Shown: positions 15,707 through 64,000, counted from the first letter of the stretch. The stretch: DNA of 64,000 nt from an uncultured Alphaproteobacteria bacterium (GCA_963779545.1 CAVZYQ010000017.1:54172-118171), one strand, 5' to 3'. The notes: generated by a model not told the origin, from the letters alone. A program made the numbers and translations.

Positions 15707-16539
15707 TCACCCTCCCCCCGTCTGCTGATAGCCCTTCATCACTTCGTCCTTCAGCGCTTCCCAGATTTCGCGATGCAGCTGGTGGAAAGCGGGGTCGAGC
15801 TTCACCTCGCTGATGTCGCGCGGGCGGCTCAGCGGCACCGTCCAGTTGCCGATGATGCGCGCGGCCGGCCCGGCCGACATGATCACCACCCGGTCGGAGA
15901 GCGCGATCGCTTCTTCGAGATCGTGCGTGACGAACAGCACCGCCTTGCGGTCCGCGCTCCACAGGTCGAGCAGCAGATTGCCCATGATCTGGCGCGTCTG
16001 CGCGTCGAGCGGGCCGAACGGCTCATCCATCAGCAGGATCTTCGGATCGCGGATCAGCACCTGCACGAGGCCGACGCGCTTGCGCTGCCCGCCGGAGAGC
16101 ATGTGCGGATAGCGGTCGCCGAAGCCGCCGATGCCGACGCGAGTCGAGCCACGATGCGGCGCGCTCGCGTGCCTCGGCCTTCGCGGTCCCGGCAATTTCG
16201 AGACCGATCGCGACGTTGTCGATCGCGGTCTTCCAGGGGAACAGCGCCTCGGCCTGAAACAGGTACCCGGCCTGCCGGTTGAGGCCCGGCAGTCCCGCGC
16301 CAAAAATCCGTCGCTTCGCCATGCGATGGCGCAATCAGTCCGGCCGCCACGTTGAGCAGCGTCGACTTGCCGCAGCCGGTCGGGCCGACGATCGCGACGA
16401 ATTCGCCGTCTGCGACCTCAAGCGAGGCGCGTTCGACGGCCTTGTAGGTCCCGCCGTCGGCGAGGCGGAACGTCACATCGACATCCTTGAGCGAGACGGC
16501 CGCCGCGAACGCGCTTGCGGCATTCGAACTTGCGGCCAT
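15707..16539 (-). pseudogene. ABC transporter ATP-binding protein (SsuB/TauB-like), two frameshifts
   Basis: Walker A GPTGCGKST, then GYLFQAEALFPWKTAIDNV, then LSGGQRKRVGL..LLMDEPFGPLD, in three different frames. Shifts near 16325 and 16140. Confidence 0.8.
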
Positions 16540-16640: not shown

Positions 16641-18349
16641 CTACAACCCCTTGATCAGCCCTGCGTCGATCAGCAGGCGGTTGAAACGCCGCGCCTCGGC
16701 GCCGCCGTTGCAGCGGTAGAACAGCCCATTGCAGCGCTGCAAAATCTTCTTCTGCTCGGCGAACGAAGGGTCGAGCGGAACGCCTGCGGCTTCCAGCACG
16801 ACCAGCGGCAGGTACGGCGCATCGAGCGCATTCACGGCGGAGGAGAGATCGCGCGGCGTGAAGTTGATCGTGTTGATCGCGTAGTAGGTGGTGAGGAAGC
16901 GCGGATCGGCAGCGGCGATGCGGCGCGCGATCATCGAGTCGTCCTGCCCGGGATCGATCAGGCTGCGCGCGAGGTACGGCTGGTGATCGCCGAAGCGCAC
17001 GATCAGGAATTGCTCGGAGGGGAAGTCCTTCTTCAGCCGCTCGACGAAAGCCTGATAGTCGACCGCGCTCAAATGCTGGCGCCGCAGGTACTCGTCGACG
17101 TCGGCGCGGTTGCCGGGATCGCGCCATTCGGGCGCGAGATCGGGCCGGAAGCGGAACGTCCATGGAAAGTGGTTCTGCGCCGTATAGACCAGAAGAAACA
17201 GCGGGTCCTTTCCGTGCCGCTTCGCAATCGTTTCGGCCGCCTTGTTGAAATAGAACGAGTCGGGATCGAGGAAGCTCGCGCCGAGCGACTCGAAGTCATG
17301 GAAGTTCTGAATTCCGGCGGTGGTCTGGAAATTCCGCGCGCTGAGGAACGCACCGTACATCGGATAAAGCGTGTGTGTCTTGTAGCCGCAGTTGCGCAAC
17401 GTGTGCGGCAGTCCGCGTTCGACGCGCCCCGCCGCGATACGCGTGACGAACTCGGCGAAGCGCCCGTAGGAGCGCGCCGAAAGGCCGGTGAGCACATTAT
17501 ATTCCGTGTACCAGCTCGGGCCCCCGGCACCTTCGACCATCAGCGAGCGCTGCGTGCCGTCGCTTGATTGAAAATGCGCGCCATAGCCGGCCGGAAGCTT
17601 GATGCCAGGAATTGCGCGCGCATCGAAGCTCGAACTCGTCGAACACCATGATGATGTGCGGCAGCTTCGTGACCGTGCACGGCGCGGCCGGAGCGGCGGC
17701 GAGCCGGTCGACGGTCTTGGCGTCCGCCTCCAGTACGCCGCGCGTGATGAGGTCGCCGACCGCGGTCACGCCCGAGCGCGTGAATTTGGAGAAATAGTTT
17801 TCCGCATAAAACTCTTCCCACGGGTCGCTCGGGACCGCGGTCGCAAGTCCGACGAGACACACAAGACACGCCGCCGCACCGAGCGATGGCGACGCGGCTG
17901 CGCACGCGGAACGGATCGAAGTGCCAGATCAGGACCAGCGCAACGAGCAGAAGCGCGAGCGCAATCGCGACCTTCATGCTCAGGTTGGGGAAGACCTTGA
18001 TCAGGAACGAGAACGTGTCCGCGTCGACCACCATGAGGTCGACGAAGTTCACCGTCATCAGCAGCACATCATGCTTGAACTGCGAGAGCAGGATCAGGAG
18101 CGCAAGCCAGGCGAGCGAGATGGCGGCGGCGACCGACGGCCGGCGCAGCAGCAGCATCCAGCAGAAGTTGAAAAATCCCCACGACAGCAGGAACGCCAGC
18201 TGCGGCACCAGCCGGCTTTCGGTCGCGAGCAGGACGATCAGCGCTGCGACGTGAAGGGTCGCCAGCACAATGAGGCCGGCAGCACGCCCGCGATCGGCGA
18301 ACGAAGCGCCGAAGAAACGGGTACTCAAAGCGGCAATGGCGGGCGGCAT
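16641..18349 (-). pseudogene. Membrane-anchored sulfatase-like transferase (LTA-synthase / phosphoglycerol-transferase family), two frameshifts
   Basis: A polytopic N-terminus (ORF 17540..18349) is followed by ...PHIIMVFDE, then SSFDARAIPG...LMVEGAGGPSWYTEYN (ORF 16641..17540). An extra t near 17637 and a shift near 17880 break the frame. Confidence 0.7.
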
Positions 18350-19040: not shown

Positions 19041-20066
<1,026 letters not shown>

Positions 20067-20164
20067 TTACCCCTTGCTCCTTGGGCCCCAAAGGCCGTTT
20101 CGTTTTGTGACGGTGCTTCTAGTTTCAATGCGCCGCCCGGACAAGCCCGGGACGGCCGTTGACG

Positions 20165-20791
20165 TTACGCCTTGGCGAGATTGACGATCCCGCCGTTTCC
20201 GCCCTTCTCGGGCACGAACATGTTGAACTTGTACTTCTTCGAAAGGGCGTTCTGGCTCCATTTCAAGCGCTTGGCGACGCTCTCGATCGCCTCCCGGTCG
20301 CGCCCGTCCTCATCGAAGAACTCGGAGAAGAACAGCGCATCGAGCGCCGAGCTCGGAAACCACTCGGCGGAGCCCGCATAACCGCACACCCAGCGCGGCG
20401 TCTTCGGATGGTCAGGCTTGCCGAAAATCGTCTTCGCGTTCTTGTCAGTCAGGATGTAGCAGCCGCTGAAATAGAGCCCCGCGACCCGCGTCCCGACCGC
20501 CTCGCTCTGCTTCAGAATGACGTCGCGGATGCGCCGCATCGGGACCTTCTCGCCGTTCGGGCACTCGATCATGCTGCTGGCGCAGTGCGAGCCGATGTAG
20601 ATGTAGGAGACCCGCTTCTTGATCACGAATTTCAGCACTTCTTCCAGCGACGCCTTGCTGACGAAGCGCTCATAGAGATATTCGCCGCGATCGTGCCGCG
20701 CATCGCAAAGCAGGTCGAACAGCGGCCGCACCGAAATCTCGTTCGAGAACCATTTGCTCTCGAGCACCGCCAGCAACCGCCTCCGCCGCAT
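20165..20791 (-). CDS. Uncharacterised 208-aa protein (ORF-B) between ilvH and ilvC; possible caspase/CHAT-like fold
   Basis: Intact ORF. The ATG lies 4 nt after the ilvH stop, with GGAGGGG upstream. Third codon positions are mostly G/C. Motifs: YIYIGSH(69)C, GLYFSGC(111)Y, WVCGYAGSAEWFPSSALDALFFSEFF. Confidence 0.75.
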   Translation of the reverse strand: MRRRRLLAVLESKWFSNEISVRPLFDLLCDARHDRGEYLYERFVSKASLEEVLKFVIKKRVSYIYIGSHCASSMIECPNGEKVPMRRIRDVILKQSEAVGTRVAGLYFSGCYILTDKNAKTIFGKPDHPKTPRWVCGYAGSAEWFPSSALDALFFSEFFDEDGRDREAIESVAKRLKWSQNALSKKYKFNMFVPEKGGNGGIVNLAKA

Positions 20792-20795
20792 GATT

Positions 20796-21344
20796 CTACA
20801 TCCCCTCCGGCCCGCGGGAGATAGCTACCACGCCGGTGCGGGAGACCTCCACCAGCCCGAGCGGCAGCATCAGGTTGATGAAGCTTTCGATCTTCTCGCT
20901 CGCGCCGGTGATCTCGAAGATGAAGCTCTCGGTCCCGGCGTCGATCACGCGCGCGCGGAACGCGTCGGCGAGGCGCAGCGCCTCGACCCGGTTCTCGCCC
21001 TTGCCGCGCACCTTCACCATCGCAAGCTCGCGCTCGATCGCGGGACCGGACTCGGTCAGATCCACCACGCGCTGCACCTGCACCAGCCGTTCGAGCTGAT
21101 GGCGGATCTGCTCGATCACCATCGGCGTGCCGGTGGTGACGATGGTGATGCGCGAGAGATGCTTCTCATGCTCGGTTTCCGAGACCGTGAGCGAGTCGAT
21201 GTTGTAGCCGCGTCCGGAGAACAGGCCGATGACGCGCGCGAGCACGCCCGGCTCGTTGTCGACCAGCACCGAGAGCGTGTGGCGCTCCGGCCGCTCATGC
21301 ACGGTCGCGGCGGGGTAGTGGGTCGTCGTTGCGCTCGTGTTCAC
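20796..21344 (-). CDS. ilvH: Acetolactate synthase small (regulatory, ACT) subunit
   Basis: Intact 182 aa with GTG start: HTLSVLVDNEPGVLARVIGLFSGRGYNIDSLTV... Confidence 0.95.
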   Translation of the reverse strand: MNTSATTTHYPAATVHERPERHTLSVLVDNEPGVLARVIGLFSGRGYNIDSLTVSETEHEKHLSRITIVTTGTPMVIEQIRHQLERLVQVQRVVDLTESGPAIERELAMVKVRGKGENRVEALRLADAFRARVIDAGTESFIFEITGASEKIESFINLMLPLGLVEVSRTGVVAISRGPEGM

Positions 21345-21366
21345 GTCACTTTTCCCAGGTCGTTCG

Positions 21367-21906
21367 TCATTGAGCTTTCAGGAGCGTGTCCCGGCGTTGA
21401 ATGTCGACTTCGGAGCGCGCGTGCTTCAGAAACGCCCGCTTCTTCTTCAGCACCTCGCTTTTTGCGAGCTCTGCAATCGCCCCATCCTTCAGATTGACGC
21501 CGCTCACGAGGTCATAAATCTCGACAAGATGATTCAGGATCGCGGGACGTTCGTCCTTACGCGGTGCAGGCTCCGACGCGACGACATCGAGGCTGAACAC
21601 CGGGAAATACAGCCGGCCCTTGTCGATCGTCGCCGACAGCGAAATGAGAAGCTCATCCCGCTTCCCCGCAAGCTGCTCGCCGGTCGCACTGCGCGCGCAC
21701 TCGCGGAGCAGAAACTCGATCTGGATGATCGTGTCGATCGCGCTGTTCGTCCACGCGATGATGTCGTTGTCGCGTTGAATGCGAAGCGTAACGATCGCCA
21801 GTTTCCGTTGCTTGAAATAGGCAACAACGGAAAATGCAAACGCAACGCAGGCGATCGCCGCAGCGGCGAGGTCGAGCTGTATTGCGATACGCTCTTCGAT
21901 CTGCAT
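21367..21906 (-). CDS. Uncharacterised 179-aa single-pass membrane protein (ORF-A) between ilvI and ilvH
   Basis: Intact ORF. The ATG lies 2 nt after the ilvI stop. There is one N-terminal hydrophobic helix (about residues 13-31), then a helical soluble part. It has more A/T-ending codons than its neighbours. Confidence 0.7.
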   Translation of the reverse strand: MQIEERIAIQLDLAAAAIACVAFAFSVVAYFKQRKLAIVTLRIQRDNDIIAWTNSAIDTIIQIEFLLRECARSATGEQLAGKRDELLISLSATIDKGRLYFPVFSLDVVASEPAPRKDERPAILNHLVEIYDLVSGVNLKDGAIAELAKSEVLKKKRAFLKHARSEVDIQRRDTLLKAQ

Positions 21907-21908
21907 CG

Positions 21909-23669
21909 CTACACCAGCACCTTGCCCTTTTCGTCGATCGCCTTGCGGATGTCCTGCTCGACGTCGCCCATCAGCATTTCGTTATGCGCCTTGCCTGACG
22001 GAATCATCGGGAAACAGTTTTCCGCCTGATCGACCATGCAGTCGAAGATCACCGGCTTGTCGACGTTGATCATCTCCTTGATGGCATGGTCGAGGTCGCC
22101 CGGCTTGTCGCAGCGGATGCCGACGCCGCGGTAGGCCTCGGCGAGCTTCACGAAATCCGGCAGCGCCTCGGAATAGCTGTGCGAGTAGCGCCCTCCATGC
22201 AGCAGCTCCTGCCACTGCCGCACCATGCCCATGTACTGGTTGTTCAGGATGAATATCTTGATCGGCAGATTGTACTGCGCCGCCGTCGACATCTCCTGCA
22301 TGGTCATCAGCACCGAGGCCTCGCCCGCGATGTCGATCACGAGCGACTTCGGATGCGCAAGCTGCACGCCCACCGACGCCGGCAGGCCGTAGCCCATGGT
22401 GCCGAGCCCGCCGCTCGTCATCCAGCGGTTCGGCTCCTCGAACTTGAAGAACTGCGCCGCCCACATCTGATGCTGCCCAACTTCCGTCGTGATGTAGACG
22501 TCGCGATCCCTGGTCAGGTCGTACAGGCGCTGGATCGCGTATTGCGGCTTGATCGTCTCGTTCGAGGGGCGGTACGCGAGGCAATCGCGCGCCCGCCACT
22601 TGTCGATCTGCTTCCACCATGACGCCAACGCGGCCTTGTCGACCTGCTTACCGCCCTCTTTCCAGATGCGGATCATGTCTTCCAGCACGTTGGCGCAATC
22701 GCCGACGATCGGAATGTCGACCTTGACGTTCTTGTTGATCGACGAAGCGTCGATGTCGACGTGGATCTTGCGCGAGTTCGGCGCGAACGCGTCGATACGG
22801 CCGGTGATGCGGTCGTCGAAGCGCGCACCGATGCACAACATCACGTCGCAATCGTGCATCGTCCAGTTCGCCTCGTAGGTGCCGTGCATGCCGAGCATGC
22901 CGAGCCATTGCGGGTTCGCGGCCGGGAATGCGCCGAGCCCCATCAAAGTCGAGGTCACCGGAAAGCCGGTCATCCGCGCGAACTCGCGCAGCAGATGGCT
23001 CGCCTGCGGACCCGAATTGATGATGCCGCCGCCCGAATAGATGATCGGTTTCCTGGCATTCGCCAGCATCTCGATCGCAGCTTTGATGCGGTCCTGATCG
23101 CCCTTCACCCTCGGCTGATAGCTCTTCATCGGCACCTCTTCGCGCTCCAGATAGGTGCCGGTCGCAAACTGCACGTCCTTCGGGATGTCGACCACCACCG
23201 GTCCCGGCCGGCCGCTCTTCGCGATGTGGAACGCCTCGTGCAGGACGCGCGACAGGTCGTTCACGCTCTTCACGAGGTAATTGTGCTTGGTGCAGGGGCG
23301 CGTGATGCCGACCGTGTCGCACTCCTGGAACGCATCGTTGCCGATGAGATGCGTCGGGACCTGTCCCGTGATGCAGACCAGCGGGATCGAATCCATCAGG
23401 GCGTCGGTCAGTCCGGTCACGGCGTTGGTCGCGCCGGGGCCGGAGGTCACCAGCACGCAGCCGACCTTGCCGGTCGAGCGCGCATAGCCCTCGGCGGCGT
23501 GCGTCGCGCCCTGTTCGTGCCGCACCAGGATGTGCTGGAGCTTCTGTTGCTGGAAAATGGCGTCATAGATCGGAAGGACCGCCCCGCCCGGATAGCCGAA
23601 GATGTGCTCGACCCCATTGTCCAGCATGGCCTGGACCACCATTTCGGCGCCGGTCATTTGTCTGCTCAT
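21909..23669 (-). CDS. ilvI: Acetolactate synthase large (catalytic, ThDP) subunit
   Basis: Intact 586 aa: MSRQMTGAEMVVQAMLDNGVEHIFGYPGGAVLPIYDA... Confidence 0.97.
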   Translation of the reverse strand: MSRQMTGAEMVVQAMLDNGVEHIFGYPGGAVLPIYDAIFQQQKLQHILVRHEQGATHAAEGYARSTGKVGCVLVTSGPGATNAVTGLTDALMDSIPLVCITGQVPTHLIGNDAFQECDTVGITRPCTKHNYLVKSVNDLSRVLHEAFHIAKSGRPGPVVVDIPKDVQFATGTYLEREEVPMKSYQPRVKGDQDRIKAAIEMLANARKPIIYSGGGIINSGPQASHLLREFARMTGFPVTSTLMGLGAFPAANPQWLGMLGMHGTYEANWTMHDCDVMLCIGARFDDRITGRIDAFAPNSRKIHVDIDASSINKNVKVDIPIVGDCANVLEDMIRIWKEGGKQVDKAALASWWKQIDKWRARDCLAYRPSNETIKPQYAIQRLYDLTRDRDVYITTEVGQHQMWAAQFFKFEEPNRWMTSGGLGTMGYGLPASVGVQLAHPKSLVIDIAGEASVLMTMQEMSTAAQYNLPIKIFILNNQYMGMVRQWQELLHGGRYSHSYSEALPDFVKLAEAYRGVGIRCDKPGDLDHAIKEMINVDKPVIFDCMVDQAENCFPMIPSGKAHNEMLMGDVEQDIRKAIDEKGKVLV

Positions 23670-23720
23670 GGCTCACTCCAGTCTCGGTCAGCTCTCGGTC
23701 GTTAAACTCTTACTCAGGCA

Positions 23721-23746
23721 ACAAAAAAGGCCCCTGAAGGGCCCTG
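23721..23746 (-). terminator. Attenuator terminator in the ilvI leader
   Basis: The mRNA reads GGCCC-UUCAG-GGGCC followed by UUUUUUGU, about 50 nt before the ilvI ATG and just after the leader ORF. Confidence 0.65.
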
Positions 23747-23773
23747 CACGCACCGCCTGTTCGCGGATGGCTG

Positions 23774-23827
23774 TCAGCCACCCTCGGCAGTGCGTGCGAT
23801 ACCTACGATAAGAATATTGCGCGACAT
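23774..23827 (-). CDS. ilv leader peptide MSRNILIVGIARTAEGG (17 aa)
   Basis: Hand translation gives ATG TCG CGC AAT ATT CTT ATC GTA GGT ATC GCA CGC ACT GCC GAG GGT GGC TGA. AGGA lies just upstream. Five of residues 5-10 are Ile/Leu/Val. Confidence 0.6.
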   Translation of the reverse strand: MSRNILIVGIARTAEGG

Positions 23828-23858
23828 CGTCCTAGTCCGTCATTTCCTTGCGCGGGCT

Positions 23859-23887
23859 TATAAGGCTCTCGCGCGGGCTACGTCAAG
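23859..23887 (-). promoter_or_regulatory. Sigma-70-type promoter candidate for the ilv operon
   Basis: The minus strand reads CTTGAC-N17-CTTATA, upstream of the leader ORF. Confidence 0.5.
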
Positions 23888-23921: not shown

Positions 23922-25059
23922 TTACGAAAGCTCCATCAGCAGCCCGGTCAGCAGCTTCGCCCGCACGGCCAAGCTGTCGACCAGAATGTGTTCCTGCAGC
24001 GTATGGGCGCCCGCGCCGCAGACACCCAGCCCGTCCAGCGAGGCAATTCCCAGCGCGCCGGTGAAGTTGGCGTCCGAACCGCCGCCCGAGCTTTCGTGCG
24101 CGAGGTCGATCCCGAGGCCGGCAGCGATCCGCTTCGCGGTGTCGTACATCGCCAGAGTCTTGGCGTTCGGCTCCCACACCGGGCGCGTGACGCCGCGCGT
24201 GACGATGAAGCGGCCTGACTCGTCGTCGCCCTTGGTCAGGCCAAGCATGCGCTCGACGCCGCCGTCGAGATCGCTCTGACGCTTGGCCATGCTCAGCGCC
24301 TCGCCCTCGCACGCGCTCGCCACGCAGTTCACCCACTGCCCGCCGTGGATCACGCCGACGCTGAACGTGCAGGCATCGGTGGTCATGCCTTCGATTTGCG
24401 GGATCATGTCCGCCATGATGCGGATCGCGGAGCGCCCGTCCTTCAGCCGCGCGCCCGCGTGGCTCGGCCGGCCGATGGCTTTCAGATTGAACCGCGCAAT
24501 CGCATAGCGCCCGGTGACGATCCCGCCGTCAGCCCGGCCCGGCTCGGGCACCAGCACATATTTGTGCCGCGCGGCTTCTGCCTCGATCAGTTCGCGCGTG
24601 CTTGGACTGCCGATTTCCTCATCGCTGGTGAACAGGAACGTCACTGGCAGCGCGGGGCCCTCGCCCAGCCGCTGCAGCATGCGCAGCGCTTCGAGTGCGA
24701 TGAAGTTGCCGCCCTTCATGTCGAAAATGCCCGGGCCGTAGCACTTGTCGCCCTCGCGCCGCCACGGCAATCCGGACGCAAGCGTGCCGACCGGATGCAC
24801 GGTATCGAGGTGGCCCATGACCAGAACGCCGGGCTTGTCCTCGTGCCCGAAGGAAAATCGCGCGCGCACGCAATCGCCGAGGCCCATCCGTCCCGCGATA
24901 CGCTCCACCGTCGCACCGGACTGCAGCGCACTCCCGCGCCGCGTGGTCCATCATCGCATTCACCCGCGCCGCATCGAAGGTCGGGCTTTCGATCTCAACC
25001 CAGGGCTTGAGGCCCGCCAGCATGGCGTCGGCATCGAACGGCAGTTGCGCAATGTTCAT
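23922..25059 (-). pseudogene. M20 family metallopeptidase (carboxypeptidase G2-like), one frameshift
   Basis: The N-terminus MNIAQLPFDADAMLAGLKPWVEIESPT (ORF 24619..25059) continues in ORF 23922..24908 (GHLDTVHP...FTSDEEIGS...). Shift near 24925. Confidence 0.8.
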
Positions 25060-63821: not shown

Positions 63822-64000
63822 CGGCGGCGGCGCGGTCTTCACATCACGTTACAATCGGTTTCGCCGCGCGGAAGCGAGAGTAATTTTCCAACATTTTTCA
63901 ACAAAGCGGTTGCTTTTCACGCCAAGGCGGCAGCGCTAGAATGCGCAAACATTGCGGTTGCGATTATCCCCGCGAAAGCGCAGTGTGCGCCCGGCTAAAC

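Follow-up and report, generated by a model that had tools for sequence, protein, structure and literature searches.

Probable passenger genes at both boundaries of ilvH in the branched-chain amino acid locus of an uncultured alphaproteobacterium

Two genes of unrelated families were found in the junctions on either side of ilvH in a stretch of 64,000 nucleotides from an uncultured soil Alphaproteobacteria bacterium (GCA_963779545.1 CAVZYQ010000017.1:54172-118171), referred to below as the window. The open reading frame (ORF) between ilvI and ilvH, ORF-A (21367-21906, minus strand), encodes a protein of 179 amino acids (aa) from an orphan family, with a predicted N-terminal transmembrane helix and a helical C-terminal domain. 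ORF-B (20165-20791, minus strand) is located between ilvH and ilvC and encodes a stand-alone, clan-CD peptidase-like protein of 208 aa with a putative catalytic pair, His69 and Cys111. The two are probably passenger genes, which were acquired independently at insertion-permissive boundaries around ilvH in a clade corresponding to Xanthobacteraceae in the sense of GTDB.

Both ORFs were found to be genuine genes on the strand of the ilv genes, packed against the preceding stop codons, as had been proposed in a preliminary description of the window. A search with the single ORF-A sequence found 32 homologous clusters, and a profile search raised this to at least 122; almost all are unannotated and 180-200 aa long. 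For ORF-B, 14 homologs were close (50-80% identity), and exhaustive searching with a profile brought 237 family representatives. The GC content at third codon positions (GC3) was 0.72 in ORF-A and 0.87 in ORF-B, with values of 0.88-0.92 in the ilv genes. In contig L101, a sister assembly, the genes are likewise arranged as ilvI-A-ilvH-B-ilvC and have the same neighbours on both sides as in the window. Substitutions between the two at codon positions 1, 2 and 3 were distributed 6:3:32 in ORF-B, 6:1:22 in ilvH and 6:3:65 in ilvC. The two ORF-B copies are 96% identical, and on sequence comparison ORF-B is under strong purifying selection. That the two ORFs could be non-functional, either as chance frames in GC-rich DNA or as decaying remnants, is scarcely credible. 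The GC-rich DNA at this locus does yield many long spurious ORFs, two minus-strand 'gene clusters' found in the junctions of relatives (clusters 7 and 12) were antisense artefacts of an F420_oxidored-like gene, and ORF-A is frameshifted in two contigs, L064 and L101. The hundreds of full-length homologs with invariant motifs, the coding-like GC3 and the position of the ORF-B differences at third codon positions all speak against such an explanation. The ORF-A frameshifts are probably sequencing errors, because the same assemblies also break ilvI, ilvC and neighbouring genes.

The relatives used for comparison were collected in a scan anchored on ilvH, which gave 80 species representatives among the matches listed, labelled Xanthobacteraceae, Pseudolabrys, Rhodoplanes, Hyphomicrobiales or uncultured Alphaproteobacteria. 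The comparison of ilv loci bore out the two insertion events that had been suggested earlier as one option, since ORF-A and ORF-B were found to have separate distributions. ORF-A was present without ORF-B in ten contigs (L001-L003, L006, L064, L088-L091 and L102), and ORF-B without ORF-A in six (L004, L005, L007 and L093-L095). Co-occurrence in the window and in L101 could be taken as a sign of one two-gene system split by ilvH. This is very improbable and was rejected on the distributions, as the two genes are apart in all other cases; they also evolve at opposite rates, with 53-55% identity for ORF-A and 96% for ORF-B between the same two genomes.

A gene at these junctions is not unusual for the clade, contrary to what the preliminary description had assumed. 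The ilvI-ilvH spacer, determined for 79 loci, varied from an overlap to about 1.35 kb, and was 30 nucleotides (nt) or less in 21 loci, 31-120 nt in 21, 121-300 nt in 21 and more than 600 nt in 16. A gene was located between ilvI and ilvH in 16 of the 79 species (20%). The ilvH-ilvC spacer varied from 79 nt to about 3.8 kb in 69 loci, with 22 loci at 220 nt or less, seven at 221-400 nt, 15 at 601-1000 nt and 25 above 1000 nt; seven further loci had no ilvC within 4 kb. Spacers of more than 220 nt were thus seen in 47 of 69 loci (68%), and most of these held at least one gene.

The cargo of the ilvI-ilvH junction was on the ilv strand in all cases and consisted of ORF-A, one secreted protein and, as the commonest occupant, a gene of 213 aa resembling F420_oxidored-type NADP oxidoreductases (15 of 80 species; for example L067:3348-3989). 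The Rossmann domain family F420_oxidored is related to KARI and PanE, and for this reason a pathway link of the F420-like gene is possible. Only a fused N-/C-terminal remnant of the F420-like gene was left beside ORF-A in L089 (5593-5775) and in L090. The gene order is ilvI-F420like-A-ilvH in L064 and ilvI-A-(F420like deletion remnant)-ilvH in L089, and because these orders differ, at least two insertion events are required. In many relatives, ilvI-ilvH spacers of 60-300 nt were found to hold nested perfect palindromes similar to miniature inverted-repeat transposable elements (MITE) or repetitive extragenic palindromes (L087:3729-4001, for example, and also L029, L017, L045, L020 and L037). 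One such spacer of 265 nt, CCCTCTCCCCTTGTGGGAGAGGG...GGGTGAGGGG...CCCCTCACCC, has a minimum free energy of -174 kcal/mol. Linked by blastn, the palindromic repeats form families, one present in 18 loci and a second in six. Remnants of ORF-A or of the F420-like gene had been considered as the origin of the intermediate ilvI-ilvH spacers, but none were found, and palindromic repeats were found instead. The junctions of the window are free of MITE-like palindromes.

The ilvH-ilvC junction has cargo on both strands: an FMN reductase gene (antisense, 17 loci) with HxlR, a LysE-type exporter, MazE/MazF, HigBA, a small membrane peptide and others. In nine species ilvH is immediately followed by the gene for the LysE-type translocator (about 198 aa), which has the orientation of the ilv genes (for example L056:4547-5143). 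Proteins of the LysE family are amino acid exporters, so this cargo might be tied to an overflow of branched-chain amino acids. The gene for the hydrophobic peptide of 74 aa was present in seven species (for example L047:4552-4776), and the peptide had no Pfam match.

How the two ORFs are fitted into the junctions was clear from the loci in which the ilvI-ilvH junction is empty. In the window, ilvI (21909-23669, minus strand) encodes the large subunit of acetohydroxyacid synthase (AHAS; 586 aa, Pfam TPP_enzyme_N/M/C, E 1e-42 to 1e-53) and ilvH (20796-21344, minus strand; GTG start) the small, regulatory subunit (182 aa, Pfam ACT_AHAS_ss and ALS_ss_C). The third gene, ilvC (19041-20060, minus strand), encodes ketol-acid reductoisomerase (339 aa, Pfam KARI_N and KARI_C). 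The spacers ilvI/ORF-A/ilvH/ORF-B/ilvC are 2, 22, 4 and 104 nt in transcription order. Coordinates, spacers and start codons had been described correctly to the base, and the sequences AAGGTG before ORF-A and GGAGGGG before ORF-B, similar to a Shine-Dalgarno (SD) sequence, were confirmed within the 3' ends of ilvI and ilvH. The genes for the large and small AHAS subunits normally form a tightly coupled two-subunit operon, and in the empty junctions of relatives the stop and start codons overlap as TGATG in the sequence AAGGTGCTGGTGTGATG. The start of ORF-A occupies the ilvH start slot of the empty junction and has the same AAGGTG SD sequence, as TAG-cg-ATG in the window and with a GTGA overlap in L001 and L102. 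In the loci with ORF-A, ilvH starts 22-60 nt past the ORF-A stop. Because the ORF-A start and SD sequence fill the former coupling slot of ilvH, ORF-A is most likely translated by coupling to ilvI. Within the ilvIH operon ORF-A would take the ilvI-ilvH coupling signal, with ilvH displaced 22 nt downstream. ORF-B starts 4-5 nt past the ilvH stop, and its SD sequence GGAGGGG is inside ilvH.

Profile and defence-model searches, which had been proposed in the preliminary description, gave no direct Pfam, NCBIfam, PADLOC or PHROG match for either protein. The earlier statement that neither protein could be assigned to a family therefore stood for ORF-A, which had no relative in the databases searched, and was overturned for ORF-B, as shown below. 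For ORF-A nothing significant was seen in direct scans against Pfam, NCBIfam, PADLOC and PHROGs, nor in a sequence search of PDB with the close alignment. In Foldseek searches of PDB and BFVD the only matches were unspecific helical bundles at noise level (best E 0.18 and 0.39), and the most divergent members of the family gave noise only against Pfam and PDB. The structure model of ORF-A is all-helical with a mean predicted local distance difference test score (pLDDT) of 71. A single hydrophobic segment was found at residues of about 10-31 (Kyte-Doolittle maximum 2.32), with flank charges of -1 on the N-terminal side and +4 on the C-terminal side. From the flank charges and the positive-inside rule the N-terminus would be outside and the C-terminus inside, and ORF-A is predicted to be a single-pass membrane protein with its helical domain in the cytoplasm. 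Family alignments contained 13 invariant residues and the conserved motifs ExLRxQRDNDxIxW, IDKGRLYFP, ILDxLVEIYD and KRxF...EVxPxRR. ORF-A of the window has all the features by which the family was defined here: a length of about 180-200 aa, the N-terminal transmembrane helix, the two motifs E-x-L-R-x-Q-R-D-N-D-x-I-x-W and I-D-K-G-R-L-Y-F-P, and a location at the ilvI-ilvH junction in the orientation of these two genes.

ORF-A is a genuine gene of an orphan, hypervariable family. Between the window and L101, nucleotide identity falls from about 0.90 to 0.52-0.70 exactly over ORF-A and rises to 0.94 in ilvH. At the protein level, the 53-55% identity of the ORF-A copies compares with 91% for IlvI and 96% for IlvH between the same genomes, and the two copies are at about equal distance to the remaining family. 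GC3 of ORF-A was lower than that of its flanks in five of seven genomes. Presence of the gene is patchy, with one carrier among the 80 listed species representatives. Patchiness, lowered GC3 and the sharply delimited drop in identity are traits that fit a passenger. Its location is fixed: ORF-A was found at the ilvI-ilvH junction on the same strand in all 12 contigs examined, which represent nine distinct proteins with identities down to 38%. A contig containing MaoC and an ORF-A fragment (P0137) was considered as an exception to the fixed location and was rejected as a chimeric contig of 715 bp.

This exclusive location is the strongest case for a different explanation, in which ORF-A is a dedicated AHAS accessory, such as a membrane tether, an assembly factor or a regulator made together with the large subunit, and in which ORF-B may process or regulate an ilv enzyme. 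ORF-A was not found outside the ilvI-ilvH junction in the 12 contigs, whose copies span 38-55% identity, and searches of plasmids, phage genomes and viral contigs gave no match. Such a distribution is unexpected for a purely opportunistic passenger and counts against that interpretation; for this reason an AHAS-related role is conceivable. The probable coupling of the ORF-A start to the ilvI stop, the 13 residues that are invariant in the family, and the constant position of the ORF-B subfamily directly upstream of ilvC fit the same explanation. It was nevertheless considered unlikely. Two contigs, L004 and L005, have IlvI and IlvH proteins of 88-92% identity and no ORF-A, and the gene is not found in 79 of the 80 listed species representatives. 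About 45% of the ORF-A residues have changed where IlvI is 91% and IlvH 96% identical, which is ill-suited to a tight partner of the enzyme. In other loci the slot is filled by unrelated genes or by MITE-like repeats, and relatives of ORF-B are found in settings without ilv genes. In its most specific form, the explanation would make ORF-A a hitherto unrecognised third AHAS component in some soil alphaproteobacteria, anchored in the membrane, made by coupling, and tethering or modulating the enzyme. This is rather unlikely; if true, the placement of ORF-A between ilvI and ilvH would be functional and not historical.

ORF-B could be placed in a structural class. The close alignment has the invariant motifs SYIYIGSH and S(G/A)C. 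The AlphaFold model of ORF-B (pLDDT 66, predicted template modelling score 0.69; core residues 50-140 at a pLDDT of 77-93) resembles a caspase-type alpha/beta/alpha sandwich in Foldseek comparisons, with the caveat that flavodoxin-like folds were also among the matches. The top PDB match was SAVED-CHAT 8tl0 (E 7e-4 and 1.4e-3, probability 1.0, TMq 0.55-0.60), followed in order by procaspase-8, CED-3, GPI transamidase and caspases 6, 7 and 3. His69 and Cys111 were each retained in 63 of 64 family members, in an alignment at 25-40% identity. The two residues are 42 positions apart, and a His-Cys spacing of about 42 residues is also that of caspase-3 and legumain. Predicted strands E63-67 and E105-109 directly precede the two residues (SYIYIGSH69 and GLYFSGC111), giving the His-then-Cys order of the dyad. 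Near-invariant positions in the 64-sequence alignment include His69, Gly70, Gly105, Cys111, Trp134, Gly137 and Tyr138. The His-Gly motif, present in 61 of the 64 relatives, is replaced by His69-Cys70 in ORF-B of the window, and His-Cys is also the majority form in the close subfamily.

Among the 64 relatives, Pfam matches were obtained to DUF6642 (10 sequences, best E 1.7e-8), Peptidase_C13 (seven, 9e-6), CHAT (two) and Peptidase_C25 (one). When PDB was searched with a profile of the ORF-B family, GPI transamidase, legumain and CED-3 were weakly matched, with alignments that fell exactly on the segment of the dyad. The tie of ORF-B to DUF6642, CHAT and Peptidase_C13 is transitive, via profile search, and ORF-B itself does not reach a gathering threshold directly. 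A PDB sequence search with the close alignment gave nothing significant, an NCBIfam scan of the wide family found nothing, viral contigs and phage genomes gave no match, and a literature search on DUF6642 gave nothing relevant. From motifs, structure, dyad and family links, ORF-B is therefore assigned as a divergent, minimal, stand-alone clan-CD peptidase-like protein. By sequence and model it is a divergent member of a caspase-fold family of about 210 aa, related to DUF6642, in which the dyad is intact. Protease activity of ORF-B is predicted from the model.

In each of the eight contigs examined, the close ORF-B subfamily was the immediate upstream neighbour of ilvC. It follows ilvH directly in the window and in L101, L004, L005 and L095, and follows a HigB/HigA pair in L007. 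In L093 (90-160) and L094 (215-285), another upstream gene is followed by a second ilvC-type promoter (CTTGTT-N17-CTAGGG), an ilvH relic and the ORF-B homolog. The relic is about 20 nt of the ilvH 3' end and still provides the SD sequence of ORF-B. By their sequence, L093 and L094 are rearranged, with ilvIH gone from in front of ORF-B and ilvC. A metagenome scan with the closer ORF-B alignment gave only five loci, and one contig (P0139) was too short for gene context.

Distant relatives of ORF-B, at 21-30% identity, were found on a Rhizobium plasmid adjoining NYN and AbiJ-like/PDC-S32 genes, on a Pseudomonas plasmid next to a GajB-like helicase gene, and on a Vibrio plasmid with IS3 elements on both sides. 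In a metagenome locus, a relative has a type III restriction-modification methylase gene on one side and a GajB-like UvrD helicase gene on the other. PADLOC matches among these neighbours were MTase_III, GajB-like and PDC-S32. A further explanation would be that ORF-A, ORF-B or both are effectors of a conflict system, acting in abortive infection or stress death. Their placement behind the attenuator of the ilvIH unit would then be adaptive, and they would be fired by ribosome stalling during starvation or phage takeover. The caspase/CHAT fold occurs in bacterial immune proteases, and the top structural match was SAVED-CHAT. Restriction-modification, GajB-like and PDC-S32 candidate neighbours, toxin-antitoxin pairs in the same ilvH-ilvC slot, the arms-race-like hypervariability of ORF-A and the conservation of the attenuator would also be in agreement with conflict effectors. 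This explanation is nevertheless distinctly unlikely. PADLOC gave no match for either protein and only two weak ones among the 64 ORF-B relatives, the defence association comes from a handful of distant relatives, and ORF-B has no sensor or partner domain. In L093 and L094 ORF-B stands under its own promoter copy without ilvIH, and in L007 it follows HigBA and not ilvH.

The preliminary description had treated the locus as a single ilvI-ilvH-ilvC operon without a promoter between the genes. For ilvC this was found to be wrong. A promoter-like element, CTTGTC-N17-CTAGAA (20117-20145, minus strand), begins 20 nt past the ORF-B stop and is conserved in relatives. The element, as CTTGTC-N17-CTAGAA(GCA), was present in 59 of the 80 listed loci, where it precedes the ilvC ATG by 40-80 nt regardless of spacer length or cargo. 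One exact match was found in the window, where 0.08 were expected by chance. The only other near-match in the window, with one mismatch, is at 63913-63941 on the plus strand. The element fits the rhizobial sigma-70 consensus CTTGAC-N17-CTATAT (PMC3384568). On account of this conserved element, the ilvH-ilvC space is best regarded as a gap between the ilvIH unit and the ilvC promoter, and the antisense FMN reductase genes that occupy it in 17 relatives fit a separate ilvC promoter. The locus is thus not one operon, and ORF-B closes the ilvIH unit at its 3' end, with the promoter calls being based on sequence. The -35 box of the ilvC element was observed to lie in the loop of a conserved inverted repeat, GCCGGG-CTTGT-CCCGGC (20131-20150, minus strand, in the window, and also in relatives). 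The repeat could serve for the binding of a regulator, or act as a terminator of the ilvIH transcript that lacks a U-run.

A leader attenuator upstream of ilvI, described earlier at 23721-23887, proved to be real. A leader peptide ORF of 17 codons, MSRNILIVGIARTAEGG, is located at 23774-23827 (minus strand) and is rich in Ile, Leu and Val, which make up five of six consecutive residues. It is followed by a predicted terminator at 23718-23745 (minus strand; hairpin 23727-23745), formed by an 8-bp stem with five GC pairs and then TTTTTTGTT. Ile/Leu/Val-rich leader ORFs were present in 69 of 73 related loci, and a run of at least five T residues before ilvI in 70 of 73, as in an intrinsic terminator. 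The leader RNA fold had a z score of -4.7, and an upstream hairpin was predicted that overlaps the 3' end of the leader ORF. On this sequence evidence the branched-chain leader attenuator is real and conserved. An element resembling a promoter of the ilvIH unit, CTTGAC...TTATAAG, can be read at 23857-23887 (minus strand). An E. coli-type promoter scan called no promoter, the ilvIH element included, and such a scan is misleading here because alphaproteobacterial -10 boxes differ. CTTGAC, the -35 box of the ilvIH element, is the rhizobial consensus (PMC3384568).

The leader (23713-23831, minus strand) was also matched by the Rfam model RF02502, Atu_C8, over the full model (1-122) with 40.6 bits and E 9.5e-6, below the gathering score of 50. 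Atu_C8 is listed as a 'Rhizobiales sRNA'; the window element differs in that it reads as a cis-acting attenuator leader and not as a trans-acting sRNA. On the strength of the full-model match to the ilvIH leader, the RNA known as Atu_C8 may be a leader transcript that ends at a branched-chain attenuator, and the conserved leader probably explains the Rfam 'sRNA'. A literature search on Atu_C8 and ilvIH leaders in Alphaproteobacteria gave nothing relevant, and no foreign genes within an AHAS operon were described in the literature found.

ORF-A and ORF-B are probably both transcribed from the attenuator-controlled ilvIH promoter, ORF-A within the ilvIH operon and ORF-B at the 3' end of the transcription unit, before the ilvC promoter-like element. 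As this transcription is probably under attenuator control, expression of both should rise on shortage of Ile, Leu or Val. Such starvation-linked expression is most likely regulatory hitch-hiking and not a sign of a role in branched-chain amino acid synthesis. Homologous recombination in the ilv flanks, which are conserved, is the probable route by which the two genes reached other relatives. Of the earlier proposal of accessory proteins wired to starvation signalling, only the part on expression is plausible. ORF-B in L093 and L094 has its own promoter copy, and nothing was found that ties the function of either protein to starvation.

Besides the exclusive location of ORF-A, several points weigh against the passenger interpretation. 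No mobility gene, target duplication or att-like repeat was seen beside ORF-A or ORF-B in the window. Co-transcription and translational coupling of the two ORFs are predicted from spacing alone. ORF-B itself had no Pfam match at E up to 1 and no NCBIfam or PHROG match, and confidence in its model was moderate (pLDDT 66). The plasmid and defence-type settings of its relatives at 21-30% identity come from just four contigs with three distinct neighbourhoods. The sample is also limited: 79 of the 80 species representatives are metagenome-assembled genomes (MAGs), and the comparison genomes are, with one exception, MAGs or metagenome contigs, several of the assemblies having indel errors.

Compared with their intact L004 orthologs, the genes for an M20 peptidase (23925-25059), a sulfatase (16644-18349) and an ABC ATPase (15710-16491), which neighbour the locus, each switch frame one to three times. 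The ilv block of the window has no frameshift, and the earlier observation that it is intact amid frameshifted neighbours was confirmed by this comparison. The frame switches of the neighbouring genes are probably indels of long-read assembly, and the genes are probably not pseudogenes. Similar frame breaks were observed in the sister assemblies L006 and L101, even within ilvI and ilvC. Directly upstream of ilvI on the minus strand, a divergently oriented second TPP-enzyme paralog (AHAS/oxidase-like) was observed in L001 (2372-4051), L102 (2186-3787) and L006 (2326-3928). It is absent in the window, L088, L089 and L091, and its three carriers all hold ORF-A.

With ORF-A and ORF-B as passengers, a foreign gene would have seized the coupling site of a two-subunit AHAS operon, and other genes and MITE-like repeats would have done so in relatives. 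A core biosynthetic operon could in this way serve as an expression platform for passenger genes while its own function is kept. For annotation this is a warning that tight same-strand packing in a biosynthetic cluster need not mean a link to the pathway. The locus also provides concrete items that can be tested: an orphan, hypervariable membrane-protein family seen only between ilvI and ilvH, a family of minimal caspase-fold proteins that stand alone (about 210 aa), whose members are now unnamed or 'hypothetical' and which is tied to DUF6642 and to plasmid or defence-type neighbourhoods, and the promoter-like element of ilvC together with the branched-chain leader, both conserved.

Leader-attenuated operons are known from E. 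coli (ilvBN and ilvGMEDA) and Corynebacterium glutamicum (ilvBNC, with an internal ilvC promoter). The window resembles them in the leader peptide and terminator before the AHAS genes, in the coupled AHAS subunit genes seen in the empty junctions of relatives, and in the downstream ilvC with its own promoter-like element. It differs in that foreign genes separate the two AHAS subunit genes from each other and ilvH from the ilvC promoter, and we know of no described case of foreign genes at those boundaries in the model operons. ORF-B shares the predicted fold and the order of His and Cys after hydrophobic strands with clan CD, which includes CHAT (PF12770; SAVED-CHAT 8tl0), legumain and GPI transamidase (C13), caspases (C14), gingipain (C25) and DUF6642. 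In contrast to these peptidases, ORF-B is a much shorter, stand-alone protein (208 aa) without SAVED, TPR, prodomain or other sensor module, and its subfamily is fixed beside ilvC rather than within a defence operon. The junctions as a whole are similar to integration hot spots and islets, such as defence islands and toxin-antitoxin sites, in their fixed place between conserved flanks, their patchy and interchangeable content, the remnants of decay and the differences in composition. In contrast to such hot spots, no integrase, tRNA or att site is located nearby, and the inserts are single genes and not islands. The ilvI-ilvH slot of the window is further set apart by its place inside a coupled two-subunit operon, where the cargo is all co-oriented and ORF-A appears to re-use the coupling signal of its host.

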